Assembly: GCA_046727335.1 (NCBI GenBank)
Contig: JBKPCL010000008.1
Coordinates: forward strand, 1-25,773
Reading direction: 5' to 3'
DNA from: Actinomycetota bacterium
GTDB taxonomy: Bacteria; Actinomycetota; Acidimicrobiia; IMCC26256; PALSA-610
Length of the DNA: 25,773 bases
Shown here piece after piece: positions 5,648 through 25,773 of this stretch. Position numbers and translations under genes: made by a program. Under the pieces are notes generated by a model that was given only the letters and a program-made list of their open reading frames with translations, was not told where the DNA came from and did no database searches. Position 1 is the stretch's first letter. Every line of letters begins with the position of its first letter.

Positions 5648-7033
5648 ATGAGCGACGAAGACGCGCTGATGTGGAACATCGAGAAGGATCCGGTCCTGCG
5701 CTCGACGATTGTCGCCATGGCCATCTTCGAGCAAGCGCCCGACTGGGAGCGGCTGCGCACTCGCATCGACCGGGCGACCCGCCTCATCCCACGACTGCGC
5801 CAGCGCGTGCTGTCGCCACCATTGCGGCTCGGACCTCCGCGCTGGACGGTGGAACCGACGTTCGACCTCGACTTCCACTTGCGGCGCCTGCGCCTCCCTG
5901 TGCCCGGCACCTGGCGCGACTTGCTCGACACCGTGCAGCCCATCGCGGGCGCAAGTTTCGACCGCGCCCGGCCGTTGTGGGAGTTCACGCTGTTGGAAGG
6001 GCTCGAACCCGTCGACGGCGGGACGGAACGGGCGGCGTTCGTTATGAAGGTGCACCACTCCGTCACCGACGGCGTCGGCGGCATGGAGTTGCTCACCCAT
6101 CTCGTCGACTTCTCGGAGGACGCGCTCGAACCCGACGACACGCCCACCCTCGCCGAACCCGAGCCCGAACATCTCGGCGGCTTCGATCTCGTGCGCGAAT
6201 CCCTCGCGCACACGCAACGGCGCGTCTTCGGCATCGCTCGCCGCCTGCCCGGCACGATCGCCGGCGCAACGTCCGACGCGCTACGACATCCACTCCGAAC
6301 CGCGACGACCACCGCGAGCACCGCCCGTTCCATCGGGCGCACGCTGGCACCTGCGACGGGCCCCATGTCGCCGGTCATGCGCGAGCGCGGCCTCGGACGG
6401 CGTCTCGATTCCTTCGACATCGCGCTCGACGACGTGAAGCGAGCGGCGAAGGCGACGGGCGGAAGCATCAACGACGTCTTCGTCGCGTCCGTGATCGGCG
6501 GCCTGCAGCACTACCACGCTCGGCACGGCGCGGTACTCGACGCGCTCCGTATGACGCTGCCGATCAACTTGCGAACTCGCGGCGACGCGCCCGGCGGCAA
6601 CCACTTCGCGCCGGCGCGCTTCGCGATCCCCGCGAACATCGATGACCCGCGAGCGCGCGTGGAACGCGTCGGCGCGCTCGTACGCGGTTGGCGATCGGAA
6701 CCCGCGCTACAGATGACGGGAACGCTCGCGGGTGTGCTCAACCGGCTTCCCACGTCGACGACCACCGCGTTGTTCGGCACGATGCTGAAGTGCTGCGACT
6801 TCGTGACGACCAACGTGCCCGGCGCACCGATCCCGGTCTGGGCCGGTGGAGCGAAGGTCGCCGGGATGTATGCCTTCGCACCGACGGCGGGCGCGTCGAT
6901 CAACGTGTCGCTCATTTCCCACGTCGACACGTGTTGCATCGGCATGGTCACCGATACGACCGCGGTGCCCGATCCCGATGTCCTCGTCGAATGCCTGCGT
7001 ACCGGTTTCGACGAGCTGCTCGCACTCGGGTAG
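5648..7033 (+). CDS. wax ester synthase/diacylglycerol acyltransferase (WS/DGAT) family O-acyltransferase
   Basis: The internal ATG at 5648 gives MSDEDALMWNIEKDPVLRSTIVAMAIFE... with the catalytic motif HHSVTDGVGG (HHxxxDG). The 87-codon N-terminal extension of track ORF 5387 is Arg-rich and overlaps the divergent hydrolase, so it is not real. Confidence 0.85.
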   Translation: MSDEDALMWNIEKDPVLRSTIVAMAIFEQAPDWERLRTRIDRATRLIPRLRQRVLSPPLRLGPPRWTVEPTFDLDFHLRRLRLPVPGTWRDLLDTVQPIAGASFDRARPLWEFTLLEGLEPVDGGTERAAFVMKVHHSVTDGVGGMELLTHLVDFSEDALEPDDTPTLAEPEPEHLGGFDLVRESLAHTQRRVFGIARRLPGTIAGATSDALRHPLRTATTTASTARSIGRTLAPATGPMSPVMRERGLGRRLDSFDIALDDVKRAAKATGGSINDVFVASVIGGLQHYHARHGAVLDALRMTLPINLRTRGDAPGGNHFAPARFAIPANIDDPRARVERVGALVRGWRSEPALQMTGTLAGVLNRLPTSTTTALFGTMLKCCDFVTTNVPGAPIPVWAGGAKVAGMYAFAPTAGASINVSLISHVDTCCIGMVTDTTAVPDPDVLVECLRTGFDELLALG

Positions 7034-7049
7034 TCGGTATCGTGACGCG

Positions 7050-8171
7050 GTGAGCACGCCGCCCGTCGACCTACCCAAGAACCTCCGCCCGAGAGACGGC
7101 CGTTTCGGATCCGGACCGTCGAAGGTGCGCGACGAGGCCGTCGCCGCGCTCTCGGATGTCGCGCACGGATATCTCGGCACGAGCCATCGCCGGGAGGGCG
7201 TGCGGTCGGTCGTCCGGCGGATTCGCGAAGGCCTCGGTGAGTTCTTCGCGCTGCCGGACGGTTATGAGCTGCTGCTCGCCAACGGTGGCTCGACGCTGTT
7301 CTGGGACGCGGCCGTGTTCGGGCTCATCGAGCGACGCAGCTCCCACCTCGTACTCGGCGAGTTCTCCTCCAAATTTGCGGCGGCGGCCCAGGCCGCGCCG
7401 CACCTGGACGACCCGCAGATCTGCGAAACGGAACCAGGCAAGGCGCCGAATTTCTTCACGAACGTCGAAGGCGACGTGTACGCCTACCCGCACAACGAGA
7501 CGTCGACCGGCGTGATGGTCCCGTTGCACCGGGCCGACGAGAGCGACGCGCTGGTCGTCGTCGACGGCACCTCCGGTGCGGGCGGATTACGCATGGACGC
7601 CTCCCTTGTCGACGTCTACTACTTCGCGCCACAGAAGTCCTTCGCAAGCGACGGCGGCTTGTGGCTCGCGCTCTGCTCGCCGCGCGCCATCGGCCGCATC
7701 GAAGCAGTGAAGGCGTCGGGACGGTGGATGCCGGCGACGCTCGATTTGTCGATCGCGATCGAGAACTCACGGTTGGAACAGACGTACAACACGCCCGCCC
7801 TCGCGACGCTCTTCCTCCTCGATCAGCAACTGCAGTGGATGCTGGCGCACGGCGGGCTCGAGTTCGCCGCCGACCGCTGCGACGCGTCGGCCGGCATTCT
7901 CTACGGCTGGGCCGATTCGCACGCGCACGCGTCTCCGTTCGTCAGCGACCCCGGCTTCCGGAGCCACGTGACAGCGACGATCGACTTCGACGAGACGGTC
8001 GACGCCGCCGTGCTCGCCGCCGCCCTGCGTGCGAACGGCATCGTGGATGTCGAGCCCTATCGGAAGCTGGGTCGCAACCAGCTCCGCATCGCGATGTTCC
8101 CCGCGATCGATCCCGAGGACATCGAGACCCTCACCCGCGCCATCGACTACCTGATCGAGCGGCTCGCTTGA
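7050..8171 (+). CDS. serC: phosphoserine aminotransferase, actinobacterial SerC type (class V aminotransferase)
   Basis: GTG at 7050 gives VSTPPVDLPKNLRPRDGRFGSGPSKV...YYFAPQKSFASDGGLWLA...NTPALATLFLLDQQLQWM...RKLGRNQLRIAMFPAIDPEDIETL, matching the mycobacterial-type SerC family. The track ORF 6846 N-extension is Arg-rich shadow. Confidence 0.8.
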   Translation: MSTPPVDLPKNLRPRDGRFGSGPSKVRDEAVAALSDVAHGYLGTSHRREGVRSVVRRIREGLGEFFALPDGYELLLANGGSTLFWDAAVFGLIERRSSHLVLGEFSSKFAAAAQAAPHLDDPQICETEPGKAPNFFTNVEGDVYAYPHNETSTGVMVPLHRADESDALVVVDGTSGAGGLRMDASLVDVYYFAPQKSFASDGGLWLALCSPRAIGRIEAVKASGRWMPATLDLSIAIENSRLEQTYNTPALATLFLLDQQLQWMLAHGGLEFAADRCDASAGILYGWADSHAHASPFVSDPGFRSHVTATIDFDETVDAAVLAAALRANGIVDVEPYRKLGRNQLRIAMFPAIDPEDIETLTRAIDYLIERLA

Positions 8172-8198: not shown

Positions 8199-9647
8199 GT
8201 GGTACCCGATGGGCTCGTCGCGGTCGTGAAGCGGGACTGCCCGACCTGTCAGCTCGTGGTGCCGGTGCTCGCGCAGCTGGCGCAGCACGGCACAGGCGGC
8301 GGGGAGCCGCTCATTATTTACTCACAGGACGATCCGACATTCCCGGACGGCCTCCACGCGCGCGATGACACCGGCCTCGAGCTGTCGTTCGCGCTCGATA
8401 TCGACACGGTGCCGACGCTGCTGCGCATGAAGCGTGGTGAGGTCGTCGATCGGACCGAGGGCTGGGAGCGGAGCCGCTGGGAGTCGTTGACCGGCATCGA
8501 CGAGCTCGGTCCCGGTCTCCCTGACTGGCGACCGGGTTGCGGATCGCGCACGCACGATCCGGATGTCGTCGACGCCCGCACCGTCGCAGCGACGTTGCCG
8601 AAGCTGCGCGCGCGCCGGATCGAGTTCGGCGAGTCCGAGGACGAGCACGAAGCGATGTTCGCCCGCGGGTGGAGCGACGGTCTGCCGCTCGTGCCGCCGA
8701 CCCCGGAGCGCGTCGCGCGCATGCTGGCCGGCACGCACAGAGATCCCGCCGACGTCGTCGCCGTGGTGCCGCCCGATCTCGTCGAGTGCACCGTCGAGAA
8801 GATCGCGATCAACGCGGTCACGGCCGGCTGCCGTCCGGAGTATCTGCCGGTCGTGATCGCGGCGGTGGCAGCCGCGTGCACGGACGAGTTCAACATCCAT
8901 GGTGTCCTCGCGACGACGTGGTTCGCGGGCCCACTCGTCATCGTCAACGGACCGATCGCACGGCGGATCGGCATGAACTCGGGGGTCAACGCGCTCGGCC
9001 AGGGCAATCGCGCCAACGCGAGCATCGGCCGCGCGCTGCAGCTCGTCGTCCGCAACGTCGGCGGCGGCCGCCCGGGTGAGGTCGACCGAGCAACACTCGG
9101 CAACCCCGGCAAGTACACGTTCTGCTTCGCGGAGGACGAAGCCGGATCGCCGTGGGAACCGTTGCACGTCGAGCGCGGCCTCACGCCCGATACTTCCGCA
9201 GTGACGCTGTTCGCGGCCGAGGGCGCACGGGGCGTCGTCGATCAGCTGTCTCGCAATCCCGAGTCGCTGGCGCGCAGTTTCGCCGCGTGCCTGCGCACCG
9301 TCGCGCACCCGAAGAACGTGATCATCTGGGATGCGGTGCTCGTCGTGTCGCCCGAGCATGGTCGGGTGTTCCGCGAAGCCGGCTGGTCGAAGGCGCGTCT
9401 GCGCGAGGAGCTCGATGGGCTGCTGCAGATCCCGGGCGAAGAGGTCGTGCGCGGCGCAGGCGGCGTTGCCGAAGGGATGCCCGAACAGTTACGGGCGTTG
9501 ACGCTCCCCAAGTTCCGCGACGGCGGACTACAGATAGTCCATGCGGGCGGCGGTGCGGGACTGTTCTCGGCGATCATCGGCGGGTGGGCGAGCGGGGCGA
9601 TTGGCAGTGAACCGGTGACCCGACGCATCGAGGAGCCAGCACCGTGA
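8199..9647 (+). CDS. thioredoxin-like (CPTC) domain fused to a ~400-aa uncharacterised domain; first gene of the UGSC selenoprotein operon
   Basis: The N-terminus VAVVKRDCPTCQLVVPVLAQLAQHG...VPTLLRMKRGEVV is a thioredoxin fold with a CxxC motif. The large C-terminal domain (…GVLATTWFAGPLVIVNGPIARRIGMNSGVNALGQGNRANASIGRALQLV…) could not be assigned to a named family. Its stop overlaps the next gene's GTG in a GTGA junction. Confidence 0.7.
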   Translation: MVPDGLVAVVKRDCPTCQLVVPVLAQLAQHGTGGGEPLIIYSQDDPTFPDGLHARDDTGLELSFALDIDTVPTLLRMKRGEVVDRTEGWERSRWESLTGIDELGPGLPDWRPGCGSRTHDPDVVDARTVAATLPKLRARRIEFGESEDEHEAMFARGWSDGLPLVPPTPERVARMLAGTHRDPADVVAVVPPDLVECTVEKIAINAVTAGCRPEYLPVVIAAVAAACTDEFNIHGVLATTWFAGPLVIVNGPIARRIGMNSGVNALGQGNRANASIGRALQLVVRNVGGGRPGEVDRATLGNPGKYTFCFAEDEAGSPWEPLHVERGLTPDTSAVTLFAAEGARGVVDQLSRNPESLARSFAACLRTVAHPKNVIIWDAVLVVSPEHGRVFREAGWSKARLREELDGLLQIPGEEVVRGAGGVAEGMPEQLRALTLPKFRDGGLQIVHAGGGAGLFSAIIGGWASGAIGSEPVTRRIEEPAP

Positions 9648-10174
9648 CGAGAACCGTCCTCGACCCGACGTCTGAACGGCAGCCGACGACGCGCGAGCGG
9701 GCGCCGCGTCCGCCGTCGATCGACGGCCGGCGGGTCGCGCTGCTCGACATCTCGAAGCCGCGAGGCAACGTCTACCTCGACCGGCTCGAGGAGTTGCTGC
9801 GAGCACGCGGCGTGGAGGTCGAGCGATTCGCCAAGCCGACGTTCACGAAACCGGCGCCCGTCGACCTGCGGCACGAGATCACGACGAAGTGCGACGTCGT
9901 CATCGAAGCGCTCGCCGATTGAGGATCGTGCACGTCGTGCAGTGTGCACGACACCGTCAACATCGAAGCGGCGGGCGTGCCGATGGTATTCGTCGCGTCC
10001 ACCGAGTTCGTCGACGCGGCCGCGGCGCAGGCGCGTGCGCTCGGCGCCGATCCCGCGCGAGTCTTCGTGCCACATCCGATCCAGGACCGGACCGACGAAG
10101 AGCTGCGGGCTTTGGCCGACGAGTCGCTCGAGGCAATCCTCGAGACGATCATCGGGGGCCTCGCCCCGGGATGA
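9644..10174 (+). CDS. UGSC-family selenoprotein (176 aa) with in-frame TGA = selenocysteine at 9920-9922 in a U-G-S-C (UxxC) redox motif
   Basis: Track ORFs 9644..9922 and 9944..10174 share one frame and are separated only by the TGA. The read-through product is ...KCDVVIEALAD-U-GSCTSCSVHDTVNIEAAGVPMVFVASTEF..., reproducing the family-defining UGSC motif (CGSC in Cys-homologues). A strong hairpin starts 4-11 nt after the TGA. Confidence 0.7.
9926..9952 (+). promoter_or_regulatory. candidate bacterial SECIS element (stem-loop directing Sec insertion at UGA 9920-9922)
   Basis: cgtgcacGTCGTGCAgtgTGCACGACac can form two alternative 8-bp helices. One pairs 9934-9941 with 9945-9952. The other pairs the GTGCAC palindromes at 9926-9933 and 9944-9951 around a 10-nt loop. 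Either helix starts 4-11 nt downstream of the UGA, the expected bSECIS spacing. Confidence 0.45.
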
Positions 10175-10189: not shown

Positions 10190-10891
10190 TTGCTATTGCT
10201 GCACGAACTGCACACGGTTGCCGGCCGTCACGAGGACGACTTCGAGACGGCCTTCCGTGACGGCTGGATGCCGCAGGTCGCGACCGACTCCGGCGCCCGC
10301 CTCCTCTATTACCTGAAGCTCGCGCACGGCACCGGCCGCGCGTACCACGTCGTAACCATCACCGTGTTGCGCGACGGCGGCGCGTACGAGCGGCTCGTGC
10401 AACGCGTGCAGCGAGGTGATCTGCGCGCCTGGGCCGCGGACGTCGACCGGTTCCGGCATGAGGTCGAAGGAAAGGTCCTCGTCCCCGTCGAATGGTCACC
10501 GATGCGGGACGTCGACTTCGCGTCCGTTCCGACCGACGGCCGCACGCACGAGAGCGCGCTCTACATGGAGGACAGCGCGTGGCCCTACGAGGCAAAGCTC
10601 GACACGTATCTCGAGGCGGCCCGCACGCACTACGCGCCGAGTCTCGAGCAGCGGACAGAACGGTCGCTGCTCACGCTGCTCGCCGTCTTCCAAGCCGCGC
10701 TCGGCGCACCGCGCCGCCGCGAGGTCGTCTTGTGGCAGCGGGTCGACTTCCCGGAACGCTTGCCCGCATTGTTCACGCGCGAGTTGCCGCCCCACGTCAA
10801 GGGACCGGGCACATGGATGCACGACGCGCTCGAGGTGCGTGACGACTGGCAGAGCCGCCTGCTCCGCACCGCCGAGTGGAGCCCCTACTGA
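10190..10891 (+). CDS. NIPSNAP-like / Dabb-fold protein (233 aa), last gene of the selenoprotein operon
   Basis: The TTG start lies 16 nt after the UGSC stop and is preceded by GGGAGCGAGG. The N-terminal ~100 aa (HELHTVAGRHEDDFETAFRDGWMPQV...LLYYLKLAHGTGRAYHVVTITVLRDGGAYERLVQRVQ...WAADVDRFR) fits the NIPSNAP/stress-responsive dimeric alpha+beta barrel pattern. Confidence 0.5.
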   Translation: MLLLHELHTVAGRHEDDFETAFRDGWMPQVATDSGARLLYYLKLAHGTGRAYHVVTITVLRDGGAYERLVQRVQRGDLRAWAADVDRFRHEVEGKVLVPVEWSPMRDVDFASVPTDGRTHESALYMEDSAWPYEAKLDTYLEAARTHYAPSLEQRTERSLLTLLAVFQAALGAPRRREVVLWQRVDFPERLPALFTRELPPHVKGPGTWMHDALEVRDDWQSRLLRTAEWSPY

Positions 10892-18331: not shown

Positions 18332-18613
18332 ATGCCGGACGATCCGATCCCCCAGCTTGCCGACGCGCTGCGGGCGACCGGTGAAGCGCACCATCAAGCC
18401 TTCATCGCGACCGACGGCGCTGATCCCGAATGGCCGCTCTGGTACGCGGATCATCTCCAGCCGATCGTCTCCGATGCGGTCGGCAAAGACGTGACGCGTG
18501 CACAGATCGTCTGGGCCCTCGTCGACGCCGAGCGATCGGTCCCGGCGAAGGAGCCGTGGCCGACCGCGTACGCGCACCACATCGTCGACACACTCGGCGG
18601 CTCGGCGGCCTAG
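18332..18613 (+). CDS. small hypothetical protein (93 aa)
   Basis: It is a non-Arg-biased ORF with normal composition (MPDDPIPQLADALRATGEAHHQAFIATDGADPEWPLWYADHLQPIV...). It fills the gap between the MFS gene and the giant repeat gene. No family was recognised. Confidence 0.35.
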   Translation: MPDDPIPQLADALRATGEAHHQAFIATDGADPEWPLWYADHLQPIVSDAVGKDVTRAQIVWALVDAERSVPAKEPWPTAYAHHIVDTLGGSAA

Positions 18614-18727: not shown

Positions 18728-21700
18728 GTGGGACTCGGACGTCGCGGCCTGGTGCTGGTCGCAGCCCTAACGCTGTTCACGCTCATGCCGGTGCGTCCGG
18801 CGTTCGCAGCGGCACCCGTTGCATCGGACGGAACAGCGACCGTCGTTGAAGACACGCCGACGCCGATCACGCTGGATGCGACCGACGCGGACGGGGACAC
18901 GCTGACGTATAGCGTCGTCGACCAGCCGACCCACGGGCAGGTGACGTGCGATTCCGCGGGATCGTGCACGTACACGCCAGACCTCAATTACAACGGCTCC
19001 GACTTGTTCACGTTCAGCGCGAACGACGGCACCAGCGACTCCAACACCGCGACTGTCACCATCACGGTCACGCCGGTCAACGATCCGCCCGTCGCGAGCA
19101 ACGCGACGCTGAGCGTTCCCGAGGACGGCAGCGCGCCGATCACGCTCGTCGCGCTCGATCCCGACCTCGATCCACTCACGATCAGCATCGTCGATCAGCC
19201 GACGCACGGAACGCTCACCTGCGACTCGGCGGAATCGTGCACGTATACGCCCGACGCGCTGTACCACGGCACCGACTCGTTCACCTTCAACGCCAACGAC
19301 GGGACGGTCGACTCGAACACCGCGACGGTGAGCATCACGGTCACGCCGGTGAACCACCCGCCCGTCGCCAGCAACGGCACGCTCACGGTCGCCGAAGACA
19401 GCGGCGCCTCGCCCGTGACGCTGCACGCGACCGACGTCGACGGCGACCCGCTCACCTATGCGATCGTCGCCCAGCCCCCGCACGGCACGGTGGGTTGTGA
19501 CGCCGGCGGCTCACCGAACTGCACCTACACACCCGATGCGCTCTACAGCGGCCCGGACTCGTTCACGTTCCGCGCCAACGACGGCACCGTCAACTCGAAC
19601 ACCGCCACGATCAGCGTGACGGTGTCGGCCGTCAACCACGCGCCGGTCGCGAGCAACGGCACCATGAGCGTCGCCGAAGGCGGCAGCGGCCCGGTCACCT
19701 TGAGTGCGTCGGACCCCGACGGGGACTCGCTGACGTACACAATCCTCACTCAACCCGGCCACGGCACGGTGTCGTGCACCCCGTCCGGATCACCGAACTG
19801 CACCTATGCAACGAGCGCTCCGAACTACAACGGCTCGGACGCGTTCACCTTCCGCGCCGACGACGGCCAGCTCAACTCGAACGTCGCCACGGTCAACGTC
19901 ACGGTCACGCCGGTCAACGACCCGCCGGTCGCGACGAACGGCACCATGACCGTGCCCGAGGACGGCAGCGGCGGTGTGACGTTGCACGCCACCGACATCG
20001 ACAGCCCCACGCTGACCTACTTCATCGTCGCCCAGCCCGCACACGGCAACGTGATCTGCAACCCGTCCGGCGGACCGACGTGCACCTACACCGCCAGCGA
20101 CGCCAACTACAACGGGCCCGACTCGTTCACCTTCCGCGCCAATGACGGCCAACTCAACTCCAACATCGCCACCGTCGACGTCACGGTGACCCCAGTCAAC
20201 GATCCGCCCGTCGCTAGCGACGACACGCTGACGGTGTCGGAAGGCAACAGCGCGCCGATCACGCTCACCGCGAGCGATGTCGACGGCGACTCACTCACCT
20301 ATGCGATCGTCGCGAACCCGCAGCATGGCAACGTCAGCTGCGGAGCCGGCGGTTCACCGGACTGCACCTACACGCCGGATGCCAACTACAGCGGTGCCGA
20401 CTCGTTCACCTTCCGCGCCAATGACGGGACGGCCAATTCCAACACCGCGACCATCAGCGTCACCGTCTCGGCGGTGAACCACGCACCCACCGCCAGCAAC
20501 GGAACCTTGAGTGTCGCCGAAGGCGGCAGTGCTCCGCTCACCTTGTCCGCGTCCGACCCTGACGGTGATTCGCTCACCTATTCCATCGTGGCCCAGCCGA
20601 CCCACGGAACCGTCACGTGCGCTCCCGCCGGCTCAGCGAGCTGCACCTATACAACGAGCGCCCCGAACTACAACGGCTCGGACGCGTTCACGTTCCGCGC
20701 CAACGACGGGCAGCTCGACTCGAACGTCGCCACCATCAACGTCACCGTCACCCCCGTGAACGACCCGCCGGTTGCGACGAATGGAACGATGACCGCGCCC
20801 GAGGACGGCAGCGGCGGCGTCACGCTGCACGCGACCGATGTCGACAGCCCCACCCTCACCTACTTCATCGTCACCCAGCCCGCGCACGGCAACGTGGTGT
20901 GCAGCCCGGGCGGCTCGCCGAACTGCACGTACACCGCGACCGACCAGGACTACAACGGTCCCGACTCGTTCACCTTCCGCGCCAACGACGGCCAACTCGA
21001 CTCCAACACCGCGACCGTCACCGTGACCGTGACGCCGGTCAACGACCCGCCCGTCGCCACCAACGGCACCGTGGGCGTTGCCGAAGGCGGCAGCGCGTCG
21101 GTCACGCTGCACGCGACCGACGTCGACGGCGACCCACTCACCTATGCGATCGTGGCCCAGCCCCCGCACGGCACGGTGGGTTGTGACGCCGGCGGCTCAC
21201 CGAACTGCACCTACACGCCCGATGCGCTCTACAGCGGGCCGGACTCGTTCACCTTCCGCGCCAACGACGGCACCGTCAACTCCAACACCGCCACGATCAG
21301 CGTCACCGTCTCGTCCGTCAACCACGCGCCGGTCGCGAGCAACGGCACCATGAGCGCGTCCGAGGACGGCAGCGGCGGAGTAACGCTGCCGGCTACCGAT
21401 CCGGACGGCGACTCGCTCACCTATTCGATCGTCACTCAGCCCACCCACGGACATGTCGGCTGCACTCCGTCGGGTGCGCCGACGTGCACGTACTCGTCGA
21501 CGGATCCCAACTACAACGGACCCGACTCGTTCACCTTCCGGGCCAACGACGGCAGCCTCGACTCGAACGTCGGGACGATCAGTGTCACCGTCACACCGGT
21601 GAACGATCCGCCTGTCGCGACCAACAGCACCGCGAGCATTCCCGAGGACGGCAGCGGCGGCGTGACCCTCCACGCCACCGACATCGACACCGCCACACTC

Positions 21701-24700
21701 ACGTACGCGATCGTCACCCAACCGAGTCACGGCACGGTGACCTGCGGTCCAGGCGGCTCACCGAACTGCACCTACACCGCGACCGACCAGGACTACAACG
21801 GTCCTGACTCGTTCACGTTCCGCGCCAACGACGGCCAGCTCAACTCCAACACCGCGACGATCAGCGTCACGGTCACGCCTGTCAACGACCCGCCCGTCGC
21901 CACCAACGGATCCCTGGGCGTTGCCGAGGGTGGCAGCGCGCCGGTGACGCTGCAGGCGACCGACGTCGACGGCGACACACTTTCATACGCGATCGTCACG
22001 CAACCGAGTCACGGCACCGTGACGTGCGGTGCCGGCGGCTCACCGAACTGCACCTACACACCCGATGCGCTCTACAGCGGCCCGGACTCGTTCACCTTCC
22101 GGGCCAACGACGGCACCGTCAACTCCAACACCGCCACGATCAGCGTCAACGTCTCCGCCGTCAACCACTCGCCGGTCGCGAGCAACGGCACATTGAGCGC
22201 GGCAGAAGGCGGTAGCGCACCGGTCACGCTCAGTGCGAGCGACCCCGACGGTGATCCACTTACTTATTCGATCCTCACCCAACCCGGACATGGCACCGTG
22301 TCGTGTAACCCGGCCGGCGCTCCGACCTGCACCTACACCGCGACCGAGCCGAACTACAACGGCCCTGACGCGTTCACCTTCCGCGCCAACGACGGCCAGC
22401 TCAACTCCAACACCGCGACGATCAGCGTCACGGTCACGCCTGTCAACGACCCGCCCGTCGCCACCAACGGCACCCTCACCGTCGCCGAAGACTCGAGCGC
22501 ATCCGTCACCTTGCATGCGACCGACGTCGACAGCCCATCACTCACCTATGCGATCGTGGGCCAGCCCGCGCACGGCAACGTGATCTGCAACCCGGCGGGC
22601 TCACCGACCTGCACGTATACCGCGACCGACACCGACTACAACGGCGCGGACGTCTTCACGTTCCGAGCGAACGACGGCCAGACGAACTCCAACGTCGCGA
22701 CGATCAGCGTCACCGTCACGCCGGTGAATGACGCGCCGGTGGCCAGCGACGGCACGGTGACCGTCGCCGAGGAGTCCAGCGCGCCGGTCACGTTGCACGC
22801 GACCGACGTCGACAGCGGGACGCTCACCTACACGATCGTCAGTCAACCCGTGCACGGCCAGGTCGGATGCATTCCGGACGGATCGCCGAACTGTACGTAC
22901 ATCGCGACCGACCCGAACTACAACGGTCCCGACTCGTTCACGTTCCGCGCCAGCGACGGCCAGGCCGACTCGAACACGGCAACGATCAATGTGACGGTCA
23001 CACCCGTCAACGATCCACCCGTCGCCGCTGATGGCACCCTCACCGTCGCGGAAGACGGCAGCGCGCCGCTCACACTCCACGCCACCGACATCGACAGCCC
23101 CTCGCTGACGTACACCATCGTGGGCGCTCCGGCCCACGGCCAGGTGACCTGCAACCCGGCCGGCGCCCCGACCTGCACCTACACAGCAAACGACTTGAAC
23201 TACAACGGCCCCGACTCGTTCACGTTCCGCGCCAACGACGGCCAGAGCGCGTCGAACATCGCAACCGTGACGGTCACGATCACGCCCGTGAACGACCCGC
23301 CCGTCGCGACCAACCGCACGGTGTCAGTTCCGGAGGACAGCTCCAGTGCGGTAACGCTGAGCGCGACCGATCCCGACGGCGATGCGCTGTCCTACTCCGT
23401 CGTCACGCCGCCCACGCATGGCGCGGTGGCCTGCACGCCGGCCGGCTCGCCGAACTGCACGTACACCGCGACCGAGCTCAACTACAACGGCCCCGACACC
23501 TTCACGTACAAAGCCAACGACGGTCAGGCCGACTCGAACATTGCGTCCGTGAGTGTCACGGTGACACCCGTCAATGATCCGCCGGTCGCGACCAACGGCA
23601 CCCTGACCGTCGCCGAGGATGGCAGCGCGCCGGTCACCCTGCATGCGATCAACATCGACGGCGACATCCTGAACTACTCGATCGTGACCCAGCCGCTCCA
23701 CGGCGTCGTGACGTGCACACCGGCCGCATCGCCGAACTGCACCTACACCGCGACCGACCTGAACTTCAACGGCTCCGACTCGTTCACCTTCAAAGCCAAC
23801 GATGGGCAGCTTGACTCGAACGTCGCAACGGTCACGGTCACGATCACGCCTGTCAACGACGCCCCCGTCGCGCTGGATGGCGCGATCTCGGTCGGGAACG
23901 ATGGGCTGGAAGCCTTCACGCTCGCCGCGAGCGACGTCGACGCCGACCCGCTCACGTACACCATCCTCACGCAGCCCGCGCACGGCACCGTCACATGCAC
24001 ACCGGCGGGCAGTCCCAGCTGCACATTCACGACGACCGACAGCCACTTCACGGGCAACGACCAGTTCACCTTCCGCGCCAATGACGGTCATGTGAACTCG
24101 AACGTTGCGACCGTGATCGTCGCGGTCGCGTCGATCAACCAGCCGCCCATCGTGACCAACGGGACGCTGTCGGTTCCCGAAGACGGCAGCGCACCGATCA
24201 CGCTCACCGGCACCGACCACGAGAACGACCAGCTGACGTTCTCGATCATCGCGGCGCCGATCCACGGCACCGTCGTCTGCAACCCGCTCGGGCCGCAATC
24301 GGTGGCGTGCACGTTTACCGCCAACGACCCGAACTACAACGGTCCCGACTCGTTCACGTACCGAGCGAACGACGGTCAGGCCGACTCGAACATCGGCACG
24401 GTGTCTGTCACGATCACGCCGGTCGACGACGCTCCCGTCGCGGCCGCGGGCACCTTGACGCTCGACGAGGACACCAGCGCGCCCATCACACTTCACGCAA
24501 CCGACATCGACAGCGGCTCTCTCACCTACGCGATCGTCACCCAGCCGGCCCACGGCTCTGTGAACTGCAGCCCGGCCGCTGCCGCGACCTGCACCTACGA
24601 CGCGACCGACCTCAACTACAACGGCCCGGATTCGTTCACGTTCCGCGCCAACGACGGACAGCTCAACTCGAACGTCGCAACGGTCACCGTGACCATCACG

Positions 24701-25773
24701 CCGGTCGACGACGCGCCTGTCGCGAACCCAGACTCCGTGACGACCAACGAGGATCAGATCACGACGATCACGAGGGCGTTCCTCCTCTCGAACGACACGG
24801 ACGTCGACAGCCCGGCGCCGACGTTCACCGCGATCGTCCTGCCGCCGTCCGACGGGACACTGACCGTCGTCACGGGCGGCTACACCTACACGCCCAACCC
24901 CGACTTCAACGGCACCGATTCCTTCACCTACCGGATCTCGGACGGTTCACTCACCGACGAAGGTGTCGTCACGATCCACGTGACGCCGGTGAACGATCCG
25001 CCGGTCGCGAACCCAGACGGGCCCATCTCCGTCGAGGTGAACCAGCAGCTGGTCGTCAACGCGCCGGGCGTGCTCGGCAACGACACGGACGTCGACGGCG
25101 ATCACCTCACCACCTCGCTCGTCACCGGGCCGTTGCACGGAACGTTGTCGCTGCACGCCGACGGTTCGTTCACGTTCGACCCGGGGCTCAACTACCTCGG
25201 CAACGACTCGTTCTCGTACCGGGCAGTCGATCCGTCCAGCGCGAAGAGCGCCACGGTGACCGTCTCGCTGAAGGTCGCGTTCGGCGTGTTGCCGATCAAC
25301 TTCTTCGGGACGGCCGGTCCCGATAATCAGGGCTTCATCGGATCGCTGACGCAGGGGTTGAACGTCGACCTGCGAGGCGGGAACGACACCTATCGGCTGT
25401 TCTTCGGCGGACTCAACGGCCTGGTCACGATCAAGGACTCCGGCAACGACAGCGGCGACCGACTCATCGTCAGCGGCACGACCGGCAACGACACGATCTC
25501 GGTGGTCGGCAACCAGGTCACCTGGAAGACCCAGAAGATCCAGTACTCAGGCATCGAGCGCCTCGACGTGCTCGCCGGGAACGGCAATGACACCGTCAAC
25601 GTCGACGCCCATTCGCTCGGCGCGGCAGTGCGCACGATCGACGGTGGCGCAGGAACTGACATCTTGTCGATCAACGCGAGCGGTCTCGACGCTCACGTCT
25701 CCGGCAACACGCTCTTCATCAACGGTCGTGGCGCGCTGACGTTGTCCGGCTTCGAGCGGATTTCGTTGACGAG
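18728..25773 (+). CDS. giant secreted repeat protein (partial, more than 2,340 aa in window): Sec signal peptide + 21 tandem-95/Ig-like repeats + 2 cadherin/VCBS-like domains + RTX-type calcium-binding beta-roll repeats. Putative adhesin or surface protein.
   Basis: The GTG at 18728 is preceded by AGGGAGGGG. The signal peptide VGLGRRGLVLVAALTLFTLMPVRPAFA|AAP is typical. The frame is open to the window end, so the gene is absent from the track, which shows only Arg-rich alternate-frame shadows. The repeat consensus is ...PVNDPPVA-(S/T)NGT.TV.EDGS.PVTLHATDVDGD.LTY.IV.QP.HGTV.C.P.GSPNCTYT....YNGPDSFTFRANDGQ.DSN.ATV.VTVT... Confidence 0.85.
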   Translation, partial: MGLGRRGLVLVAALTLFTLMPVRPAFAAAPVASDGTATVVEDTPTPITLDATDADGDTLTYSVVDQPTHGQVTCDSAGSCTYTPDLNYNGSDLFTFSANDGTSDSNTATVTITVTPVNDPPVASNATLSVPEDGSAPITLVALDPDLDPLTISIVDQPTHGTLTCDSAESCTYTPDALYHGTDSFTFNANDGTVDSNTATVSITVTPVNHPPVASNGTLTVAEDSGASPVTLHATDVDGDPLTYAIVAQPPHGTVGCDAGGSPNCTYTPDALYSGPDSFTFRANDGTVNSNTATISVTVSAVNHAPVASNGTMSVAEGGSGPVTLSASDPDGDSLTYTILTQPGHGTVSCTPSGSPNCTYATSAPNYNGSDAFTFRADDGQLNSNVATVNVTVTPVNDPPVATNGTMTVPEDGSGGVTLHATDIDSPTLTYFIVAQPAHGNVICNPSGGPTCTYTASDANYNGPDSFTFRANDGQLNSNIATVDVTVTPVNDPPVASDDTLTVSEGNSAPITLTASDVDGDSLTYAIVANPQHGNVSCGAGGSPDCTYTPDANYSGADSFTFRANDGTANSNTATISVTVSAVNHAPTASNGTLSVAEGGSAPLTLSASDPDGDSLTYSIVAQPTHGTVTCAPAGSASCTYTTSAPNYNGSDAFTFRANDGQLDSNVATINVTVTPVNDPPVATNGTMTAPEDGSGGVTLHATDVDSPTLTYFIVTQPAHGNVVCSPGGSPNCTYTATDQDYNGPDSFTFRANDGQLDSNTATVTVTVTPVNDPPVATNGTVGVAEGGSASVTLHATDVDGDPLTYAIVAQPPHGTVGCDAGGSPNCTYTPDALYSGPDSFTFRANDGTVNSNTATISVTVSSVNHAPVASNGTMSASEDGSGGVTLPATDPDGDSLTYSIVTQPTHGHVGCTPSGAPTCTYSSTDPNYNGPDSFTFRANDGSLDSNVGTISVTVTPVNDPPVATNSTASIPEDGSGGVTLHATDIDTATLTYAIVTQPSHGTVTCGPGGSPNCTYTATDQDYNGPDSFTFRANDGQLNSNTATISVTVTPVNDPPVATNGSLGVAEGGSAPVTLQATDVDGDTLSYAIVTQPSHGTVTCGAGGSPNCTYTPDALYSGPDSFTFRANDGTVNSNTATISVNVSAVNHSPVASNGTLSAAEGGSAPVTLSASDPDGDPLTYSILTQPGHGTVSCNPAGAPTCTYTATEPNYNGPDAFTFRANDGQLNSNTATISVTVTPVNDPPVATNGTLTVAEDSSASVTLHATDVDSPSLTYAIVGQPAHGNVICNPAGSPTCTYTATDTDYNGADVFTFRANDGQTNSNVATISVTVTPVNDAPVASDGTVTVAEESSAPVTLHATDVDSGTLTYTIVSQPVHGQVGCIPDGSPNCTYIATDPNYNGPDSFTFRASDGQADSNTATINVTVTPVNDPPVAADGTLTVAEDGSAPLTLHATDIDSPSLTYTIVGAPAHGQVTCNPAGAPTCTYTANDLNYNGPDSFTFRANDGQSASNIATVTVTITPVNDPPVATNRTVSVPEDSSSAVTLSATDPDGDALSYSVVTPPTHGAVACTPAGSPNCTYTATELNYNGPDTFTYKANDGQADSNIASVSVTVTPVNDPPVATNGTLTVAEDGSAPVTLHAINIDGDILNYSIVTQPLHGVVTCTPAASPNCTYTATDLNFNGSDSFTFKANDGQLDSNVATVTVTITPVNDAPVALDGAISVGNDGLEAFTLAASDVDADPLTYTILTQPAHGTVTCTPAGSPSCTFTTTDSHFTGNDQFTFRANDGHVNSNVATVIVAVASINQPPIVTNGTLSVPEDGSAPITLTGTDHENDQLTFSIIAAPIHGTVVCNPLGPQSVACTFTANDPNYNGPDSFTYRANDGQADSNIGTVSVTITPVDDAPVAAAGTLTLDEDTSAPITLHATDIDSGSLTYAIVTQPAHGSVNCSPAAAATCTYDATDLNYNGPDSFTFRANDGQLNSNVATVTVTITPVDDAPVANPDSVTTNEDQITTITRAFLLSNDTDVDSPAPTFTAIVLPPSDGTLTVVTGGYTYTPNPDFNGTDSFTYRISDGSLTDEGVVTIHVTPVNDPPVANPDGPISVEVNQQLVVNAPGVLGNDTDVDGDHLTTSLVTGPLHGTLSLHADGSFTFDPGLNYLGNDSFSYRAVDPSSAKSATVTVSLKVAFGVLPINFFGTAGPDNQGFIGSLTQGLNVDLRGGNDTYRLFFGGLNGLVTIKDSGNDSGDRLIVSGTTGNDTISVVGNQVTWKTQKIQYSGIERLDVLAGNGNDTVNVDAHSLGAAVRTIDGGAGTDILSINASGLDAHVSGNTLFINGRGALTLSGFERISLT
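18812..24722 (+). repeat. 21 head-to-tail ~282-nt (94-aa) coding repeats, 'tandem-95 repeat'/bacterial Ig-like type, two Cys per repeat
   Basis: Each repeat boundary is marked by the PVN(D/H)(P/A)PVA junction, and 21 units were counted by translation. The repeats are coding-frame conserved, not CRISPR-like. Confidence 0.85.
19370..22755 (+). repeat. higher-order repeat: four copies of an ~846-nt unit made of three successive 94-aa repeats (types A-B-C)
   Basis: Repeats 3/6/9/12 end ...TYTPDALYSGPDSFTFRANDGTVNSNTATISVTVS(A/S)VNHAPVA. Repeats 4/7/10/13 read ...LSASDPDGD.LTY.I.TQP.HGTV.C.P.G.P.CTY.T..PNYNG.DAFTFRA. Repeats 5/8/11/14 read ...TLHATD.DSP.LTY(F/A)IV.QPAHGNV.C.P.G.P.CTYTA.D.(N/D)YNG. 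Corresponding segments such as 19440-19690 and 21128-21380 are about 93-95% identical at the nucleotide level. Confidence 0.6.
25330..25773 (+). repeat. RTX/hemolysin-type calcium-binding nonapeptide (beta-roll) repeats at the C-terminal side of the giant protein
   Basis: The motifs recur as LRGGNDTY..., DSGNDSGDRL..., GTTGNDTIS..., LAGNGNDTVNV..., DGGAGTDILSI... (G-G-x-G-(N)-D-x-[LIV]). Confidence 0.55.

Follow-up and report, generated by a model that had tools for sequence, protein, structure and literature searches.

The stretch of DNA analysed here (25,773 nucleotides of contig JBKPCL010000008.1 from an Actinomycetota bacterium, hereafter the window) contains two short open reading frames (ORFs), 9644-9922 (92 aa) and 9944-10174 (76 aa), which share a frame and are parted only by a TGA codon at 9920-9922. 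The question raised by this locus is whether that TGA is a stop or a codon for selenocysteine (Sec), as an earlier note on the DNA had proposed. We consider it about 90% probable that 9644-10174 is one gene for a selenoprotein of the UGSC family, Sec-recoded at the UGA.

Translation of 9644-10174 on the forward strand encountered exactly one internal stop, the TGA at issue, in agreement with the earlier description of the two ORFs. Read through, the frame gives ...EALAD-U-GSCTSCSVHD... and a single-domain protein of 176 aa including Sec, which reproduces the predicted D-U-G-S-C-T-S-C stretch and the predicted length of about 176 aa; homologues measure 171-190 aa. With U replaced by C, the product matched the NCBIfam model NF041046 ('UGSC family (seleno)protein') with 155.8 bits (cut-off 125) over profile positions 1-146 of 147, and the Pfam model PF24696 ('UGSC family') with 158.6 bits (cut-off 25) over positions 1-170 of 172. 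The family identity asserted in the earlier note is thus borne out by full-length matches above both curated cut-offs. Taken alone, the 92-aa half covered positions 1-68 of NF041046 and the 76-aa half positions 77-146, with 56.5 and 60.7 bits, both below the cut-off. The GC content at third codon positions (GC3) was 0.83-0.85 on both sides of the TGA, a value typical of real genes in this contig of 69% GC. The closest loci came from metagenome-assembled genomes (MAGs) of uncultured Actinomycetes and Acidimicrobiia with 77-80% identity; L001 showed 80% identity over residues 1-171.

In the public protein collection the window gene is stored as two proteins of 92 and 76 aa from the same 25,773-bp contig, the two truncated products that had been expected of automated annotation. 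Truncation is common in the family, as 82 of the 120 best database proteins stop exactly at ...EALAD. Near-identical 76-aa C-terminal fragments (P0249-P0253, equivalent to window 9944-10171) carry the JGI name 'alkanesulfonate monooxygenase SsuD/methylene tetrahydromethanopterin reductase-like', which is unrelated to UGSC.

The codon itself was compared in a genomic scan with one genome per species, which returned 492 relatives; the counts of loci given here refer to the best 80 of these 492. They stem from Acidimicrobiia, other Actinomycetota, Deltaproteobacteria, Latescibacterota, Burkholderiales, Binatia, Thermoanaerobaculia and others. TGA occupied the position of codon 93 in 80/80 loci, between a near-invariant EALAD and GSC(T/V/A)(S/T)C, and judging from these related loci its retention is far beyond chance. 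Of the 120 best database proteins, 32 are full-length homologues with Cys at the Sec position (motif CGSC), and Cys is also encoded there in 79 metagenome loci. Conservation continues on both flanks and does not halt at the TGA, so that the alignment check proposed in the earlier note came out in favour of read-through. In alignment A3, C96 and D103 are nearly invariant and C99 and H102 invariant. The 21 nt from the TGA to the GTG of the second ORF encode a conserved G-S-C-T-S-C-S, in which Gly+1 uses four codons and Ser+2 six (from the TCN and AGY boxes). Constant residues with varying codons show that the segment between TGA and GTG is translated. The comparison thus reveals selection on UGA 9920-9922 as a sense codon.

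Two kinds of variants were seen at this position. Three proteins that are otherwise full-length (P0001, P0004 and P0005) carry W, R or G in place of Sec. These residues have codons one base away from TGA (TGG, CGA/AGA, GGA), and sequence variation, errors or gene calls under another genetic code could account for them. The closest Cys form (L161, positions 947-1486 of JGI contig Ga0589500_04564945, encoding P0003) has TGT for TGA and keeps the whole hairpin (ACG TCG TGC AGT GTG CAC GAC), which would reflect either a very recent switch from Sec to Cys or a base-call variant. In more distant Cys forms the hairpin is lost.

This hairpin is the second line of evidence. The earlier note had placed a selenocysteine insertion sequence (SECIS) directly behind the TGA. 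A SECIS-type hairpin is indeed present and under selection, but the stem that is conserved is 9934-9952 and not 9926-9951, whose outer pairs fail in relatives. Published criteria for bacterial SECIS elements (bSECIS; PMC13188914) ask for a stem of 4-16 bp, a loop of 3-9 nt opening with G and then G or U, 16-37 nt from UGA to loop and a minimum free energy (MFE) of at most -7.5 kcal/mol; stem 9934-9952 lies within all of these, with 8 bp beginning 11 nt past the UGA, a 3-nt GUG loop, 19 nt from UGA to loop and a dG of -12.4 kcal/mol. Across 81 sequences, 96.5% of the cells of this stem were paired. Three pairs never vary, and the sole freely varying pair, 9937:9949, was GC in 63, GU in 9 and AU in 3 of the 75 distinct sequences, with zero mispairs. 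The folding energy of the 9926-9951 hairpin was ordinary for 69% GC (z = -0.47; 64 of 200 shuffles as stable), and since the energy test was not significant it was replaced by a comparative codon analysis.

In the TGA forms, the codons which build the stem are frozen: Ser+5 is only TCG or TCA (64/64), Cys+6 is TGC (80/81), Ser+7 is AGT (77/77), a codon seldom used in GC-rich genomes, Val+8 is GTG (71/71) and Asp+10 is GAC (81/81). Codons outside the stem behave differently, with six in use at Ser+2 and a prevalence of GAT at Asp-1 and Asp+13. By contrast, the 79 Cys-form genes, which code for identical residues here, use four codons evenly at Ser+5, TCG (37), TCA (17), TCC (13), AGC (10) and AGT (1) at Ser+7, and GAC (48) or GAT (31) at Asp+10, and none of the 79 is able to form all eight pairs. 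Fisher tests on distinct Sec and Cys sequences, whose p-values ignore shared ancestry, separated the two forms at Ser+7 (AGT in 76/76 versus 1/60, p = 3e-38), Asp+10 (GAC in 80/80 versus 33/60, p = 2e-12), Ser+5 (TCR in 63/63 versus 31/60, p = 9e-12) and Thr+4 (p = 9e-11), while the control codons Ser+2 (p = 0.11) and His+9 (p = 0.53) were alike in both. Codon usage argues that hairpin 9934-9952 is selected only where the codon is TGA. Its bases also encode S-C-S-V-H-D, so that RNA signal and active site coincide in one stretch.

The stem originally proposed, in which 9926-9934 pairs with 9943-9951 from 3 nt past the UGA, is the obvious competitor for the role of the functional SECIS. It belongs to the MFE structure of the isolated window RNA (-12.9 kcal/mol, P = 0.99), its inner six pairs are well conserved, and all nine pairs are possible in 22/81 sequences. 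Nevertheless, only 78.8% of its cells were paired, and its outer three pairs were broken in 41-52 of the 75 distinct sequences, since AGC, AGT and TCC are all used freely at Ser+2. The fold was favoured in 13/80 distinct Sec sequences, compared with 63/80 for stem 9934-9952. It would also leave the invariant C9952 (the last base of Asp+10 GAC) unpaired and unexplained, as well as U9943, where AGC would form a stronger G-C pair and AGT is nonetheless universal. Moreover, as judged from ribosome footprints, the first ~11 nt downstream would lie inside the ribosome when the UGA is in the A site, so that the 5' arm of 9926-9951 would be within the mRNA channel and this stem would melt, leaving 9934-9952 free to fold. 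We therefore hold it to be improbable that 9926-9951 is the functional element.

Support for Sec decoding also came from the surroundings of orthologous genes. In seven loci, a tRNA-Sec precedes the UGSC gene by 1.5-3 kb. In locus L022 (4383-10510) the order is selD (326 bits, cut-off 125), selA (407, cut-off 268), selB (274, cut-off 242), tRNA-Sec, a partner gene and UGSC. Five more loci from Ilumatobacteraceae-type MAGs (L020, L034, L047, L057 and L074) have the same layout, and L024 is a truncated locus. With selD-selA-selB-tRNA-Sec directly upstream of the partner and UGSC genes, the Sec machinery and the selenoprotein module form one cluster. At UGA 9920-9922 of the window, hairpin 9934-9952 would accordingly act as the bacterial SECIS and recruit SelB-GTP-Sec-tRNA(Sec), the role of SelB being taken from the general bacterial mechanism; Sec would be inserted as residue 93 and translation would run on to the TGA at 10172.

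Two other explanations of the TGA have to be weighed against Sec decoding. It might be a real stop in this organism, either in a relic or pseudogene left after loss of the Sec machinery or between two separately translated fragments, and the failure to find sel genes and tRNA-Sec on the 25.8-kb contig would suit such a loss. However, the gene is intact in both halves as well as in its TGA and SECIS hairpin and stays close to its orthologues, as seen in the identity to L001, and coding-like GC3 persists on both sides. Formally, the second ORF could begin with the GTG at 9944, but the 21 nt in front of it encode the invariant G-S-C-T-S-C-S under protein-level selection; likewise, two products are stored in the public collection, but neither half is recognised alone at the family cut-off. 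A real stop is for these reasons very improbable. Still more remote, in our view, is a decoding of the UGA without Sec, for instance through a near-cognate or suppressor tRNA that reads it as Trp or Cys, or through a different genetic code. Nine of the 15 window genes, the partner gene and the UGSC gene among them, end with an ordinary TGA stop, which excludes a reassigned code. The SECIS-type hairpin is under selection solely in TGA forms, and a full sel operon with tRNA-Sec (anticodon TCA) abuts the orthologous gene in six loci. The W, R or G of the three database homologues described above speak for such decoding, yet the replacement residue in homologues is Cys, the sulfur analogue of Sec.

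Features of the window that bear on the UGSC gene, and those of other genes mentioned in the text
Feature	Position	Strand	Description	Evidence or context
UGSC-family selenoprotein gene, complete	9644..10174	+	176 aa, GTG start, TGA stop 10172-10174 (probable Sec recoding)	single frame, one internal TGA; NF041046 and PF24696 above cut-offs
Shine-Dalgarno-like GAGGAG	9630..9635	+	8 nt before GTG start	read from sequence
In-frame TGA, probable Sec codon, residue 93	9920..9922	+	first residue of U-G-S-C-T-S-C (UxxCxxC)	TGA in 80/80 related loci; Cys in homologues
Codons Cys96 (9929-9931), Cys99 (9938-9940), His102 (9947-9949), Asp103 (9950-9952)	9929..9952	+	predicted active-site residues after Sec93	bases shared with SECIS
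Conserved SECIS hairpin	9934..9952	+	arms 9934-9941 (GUCGUGCA) and 9945-9952 (UGCACGAC), loop 9942-9944 GUG	pairing, codon freezing, bSECIS criteria
Competing stem of the earlier note	9926..9951	+	9926-9934 with 9943-9951	favoured in isolated window RNA, not conserved
Partner gene	8199..9647	+	482 aa; thioredoxin-fold N-domain with CPTC 8238-8249; Cys114 in PGCGS 8532-8546; ~350-aa C-domain; TGA stop 9645-9647	
SerC phosphoserine transaminase	6846..8171	+	TIGR01366 542 bits; weak Aminotran_5 in Pfam	upstream of partner
Small gene	18332..18613	+	93 aa	same frame as giant ORF, one stop between
Giant secreted protein	18728-25773, off window end	+	GTG start near 18728, signal peptide, 23 Big_9/Cadherin_4/Cadherin_5 repeats	

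The partner gene, whose stop overlaps the GTG start of UGSC by 4 nt in the window, is the constant companion of the family. It was found directly upstream on the same strand in 77/77 Sec loci and 55/55 Cys loci with a match, and the unmatched loci are nearly all contigs that start at UGSC. The 4-nt overlap recurs in 43/78 Sec and 36/55 Cys loci, and the gap is at most 20 nt in 64/78 and 52/55, respectively. From this gene order, UGSC is seen to be co-inherited with the partner and is probably translationally coupled to it. The N-terminal thioredoxin domain of the partner is confident, with the CxTC variants CPTC (63), CETC (34) and CATC (14), whereas the C-terminal domain of ~350 residues had no Pfam or NCBIfam family match and contains several invariant cysteines. 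The partner family is very large, with at least 8000 database candidates.

In Ca. Microthrix sp. UBA2983 (L035, 8866-8868), the partner has an in-frame TGA at the invariant Cys114 (PG-C-GS), with a GC-rich hairpin of 8 bp behind it. Among loci matching the motif search this codon was TGA in 1 and TGC or TGT in 27, and in some lineages Sec may thus occur in the partner as well.

A Pyr_redox_2 flavoprotein gene of the size of a thioredoxin reductase (TrxR) was located within about 2 kb of the partner in nine scanned loci, all of them Cys-type metagenome contigs, and in L163/L164. It lies immediately upstream on the same strand in L151, L154, L159 and L163/L164 and is divergent in L090, L134, L137 and L153. 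In L163/L164 (76-3022) the TrxR-like gene (76-1032 in L163), encoding 318 aa, overlaps the partner by 4 nt and thereby forms a three-gene operon. No TrxR-like gene was found beside any of the 80 Sec loci or in the window. SerC (6846-8171) and the NIPSNAP-like gene (10190-10891) were considered as members of the module and rejected, since they adjoin UGSC in only 3/80 and 4/80 loci; no conserved neighbour of UGSC other than the partner was found.

The UGSC protein is predicted to adopt a five-unit beta-alpha Rossmann or flavodoxin-like domain, with Sec93 at the N-terminus of helix 3 and the pattern U-x-x-C-x-x-C-x-x-H-D. The thioredoxin fold was not seen in the predicted structure, and no PDB chain matched the UGSC family profile by sequence. 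Model confidence was low for the N-terminal ~25 residues (residues 1-26, window 9644-9720), yet D7, P8, T9 and R17 are invariant or nearly so; an arm that becomes ordered only on partner binding would fit this model. Weak matches were obtained to reductase subunits of the 'protein B' type: among 25 UGSC members, 19 matched GrdB, 18 GrdF, 8 GrdH and 6 a generic 'selenoprotein B', and the GrdB-type matches fell at profile positions ~333-403 in the three proteins with coordinates. The closest characterised relatives of UGSC would be the Sec-bearing C-terminal segments of GrdB, GrdF, GrdH and PrdB, a relationship that is weak and consistent.

By analogy, we hypothesize that the products of UGSC and its partner act together and that the thioredoxin domain re-reduces a Sec93-Cys96 selenenylsulfide, a proposal whose chances we regard as even. 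Sec93 would attack the substrate or an oxidised site of the partner, giving the Sec93-Cys96 selenenylsulfide, which the partner thioredoxin domain (CPTC) would reduce; the C-terminal domain of the partner would supply the substrate site, and the TrxR-like flavoprotein encoded upstream in some Cys-form genomes could feed the relay. Going further, and somewhat more doubtfully, UGSC might be the small Se subunit of an unrecognised two-subunit enzyme with the thioredoxin-fusion partner as large subunit, that is, a GrdB-like UxxCxxC reductase module in aerobic soil, freshwater and marine bacteria, sometimes fed by a TrxR-like flavoprotein. In this case, UGSC would be no free-standing antioxidant.

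Instead of cycling through a selenenylsulfide, U-x2-C-x2-C-x2-H-D might provide the ligands of a metal or iron-sulfur centre, the role that Sec has in [NiFeSe] hydrogenase or formate dehydrogenase. CxxCxxC is a classic cluster-binding spacing, and the motif, in a predicted fold that is not that of thioredoxin, sets three (seleno)thiolates at positions i, i+3 and i+6 ahead of an invariant His-Asp. A fourth invariant Cys is missing, however; GrdB and PrdB use UxxCxxC for covalent redox chemistry, and the CxxC thioredoxin domain of the partner and the TrxR-like flavoprotein in some operons provide the context of a dithiol relay. A metal site is hence unlikely, and the redox relay remains our preferred proposal for the pair.

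Several observations weigh against our interpretation of the locus. Profile and tRNA searches of the 25.8-kb window, which is the whole contig, found no sel genes, no tRNA-Sec and no tRNA of any kind, so the competence of this organism to insert Sec is assumed from its relatives. Rfam gave no hit at gathering thresholds in the whole window, and a permissive scan of 9890-10000 gave only miRNA and snoRNA noise (E >= 0.26). Besides the thermodynamic preference of the isolated window RNA for the competing stem, an A-A mismatch occurs at the second pair of 9934-9952 in 16 of the 75 distinct sequences. The covariation in this stem is thin, being confined to one pair with three double changes and a score reached by 2 of 500 shuffles. 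As the sequences are also related, most weight is placed on the freezing of synonymous sites, for which the Cys-form control is a different, slightly less GC-rich clade. With regard to function, the structure was predicted for the natural Cys homologue P0003 (61% identical) and not for the window protein, which itself scored only 20.0 bits against TIGR01917 (GrdB; cut-off 602) and 16.4 bits against TIGR01918 (cut-off 65.45). The Pfam GRDB domain (PF07355) had no match in 25 UGSC members at E <= 1. Scores so far below the cut-offs, together with the lack of a GRDB match, suggest a distant relationship to the GrdB type and not membership. Finally, the redox relay is an analogy drawn for a family that has been described from bioinformatics only.

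The remaining genes of the window encode YchF, UPF0014, Rrf2, a hydrolase, WS/DGAT, SerC, the partner, a NIPSNAP-like protein, a beta-lactamase-like protein, ACAD, SPFH, MFS and an adhesin. The frame of the giant adhesin is open from 18614 and spans more than 2,340 aa within the window, where it meets no stop and is therefore missing from the ORF list; this repeat protein accounts for an abrupt change in base skew past 19 kb (GC skew about -0.2, AT skew about +0.2). A second recoding site in front of it, at 18611, was considered and rejected, since that stop reads TAG and translation of the adhesin can start at a GTG of its own, with a signal peptide behind it.

The UGSC family has been known since about 2005-2008, with papers dating from 2007-2008 at the latest; curated models exist for it, and the window gene is a further member. 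It corresponds to the 'UGSC-containing protein' of Zhang & Gladyshev (PMC1976440, PMC2398784), with ABI76733.1 of Hyphomonas neptunium as an example. These family papers include the record of 2007, from H. neptunium among others, of a UGSC selenoprotein whose function was not known. In the Global Ocean Sampling (GOS) metagenomes, UGSC ranked with the most abundant selenoprotein families (255 Sec and 21 Cys forms) and was commoner in non-marine samples. A review from 2026 lists UGSC with NF041046 and describes the functions of such families as uncharacterised; in the cited literature, UGSC is known from bioinformatics alone. The exact conserved SECIS stem, the upstream thioredoxin-fusion partner and the predicted Rossmann-like fold are absent from the cited descriptions, that of 2008 giving a 'likely Trx-like fold'. 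The locus opens no new category. As a selenoprotein gene halved by public gene calls, it makes a clear-cut case for annotation, and the correction of such calls matters for selenoproteome censuses; UGSC is one of the most abundant environmental selenoprotein families. For experimenters, a defined SECIS, a thioredoxin-fusion partner, a Rossmann-like fold and the UxxCxxC relationship to the GrdB type now offer handles, and the partner-UGSC module is the part that is possibly worth pursuing.

Compared with known systems, the window hairpin resembles the bacterial SECIS consensus and that of E. coli fdhF in its location directly 3' of the UGA within the coding region and in its small apical loop opening with G-U. 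The 11-nt gap between UGA and stem is, as we assume, also the spacing of fdhF. The hairpin differs from the consensus by its 3-nt GUG loop, by the lack of a bulged U in most sequences, by the lack of recognition by Rfam, and by a mutually exclusive upstream stem which competes in about 16% of sequences, the window included. With the thioredoxin-fold selenoproteins (Trx-like, Prx-like and SelW-like, with UxxC or CxxU), UGSC has in common the UxxC dyad at a helix N-terminus and a presumed thiol/selenol redox role, although its predicted fold is another.

The comparison with 'protein B' of glycine, sarcosine, betaine and D-proline reductases (GrdB, GrdF (NF040794), GrdH (NF040795) and PrdB) reveals both likeness and distance. 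UGSC lacks the ~330-residue N-terminal GRDB domain and scores about 16-20 bits against cut-offs of up to 800; in contrast to the 'protein B' operons, no genes for GrdA, GrdC, GrdD, GrdE or PrdA lie near it, none for PrdC is among the window genes, and its hosts are largely aerobic Actinomycetota of soil and freshwater, whereas those of 'protein B' are amino-acid-fermenting anaerobes. It shares with these subunits the UxxCxxC motif (U93-C96-C99; GrdB motif according to PMC13188914) and the link to a thioredoxin-type reductant. From the described UGSC family, the window protein is set apart by no defining difference, and it shares with that family the U-G-S-C motif and its position, the size of ~175 aa, the existence of Cys homologues, and the predominance of Sec over Cys forms.

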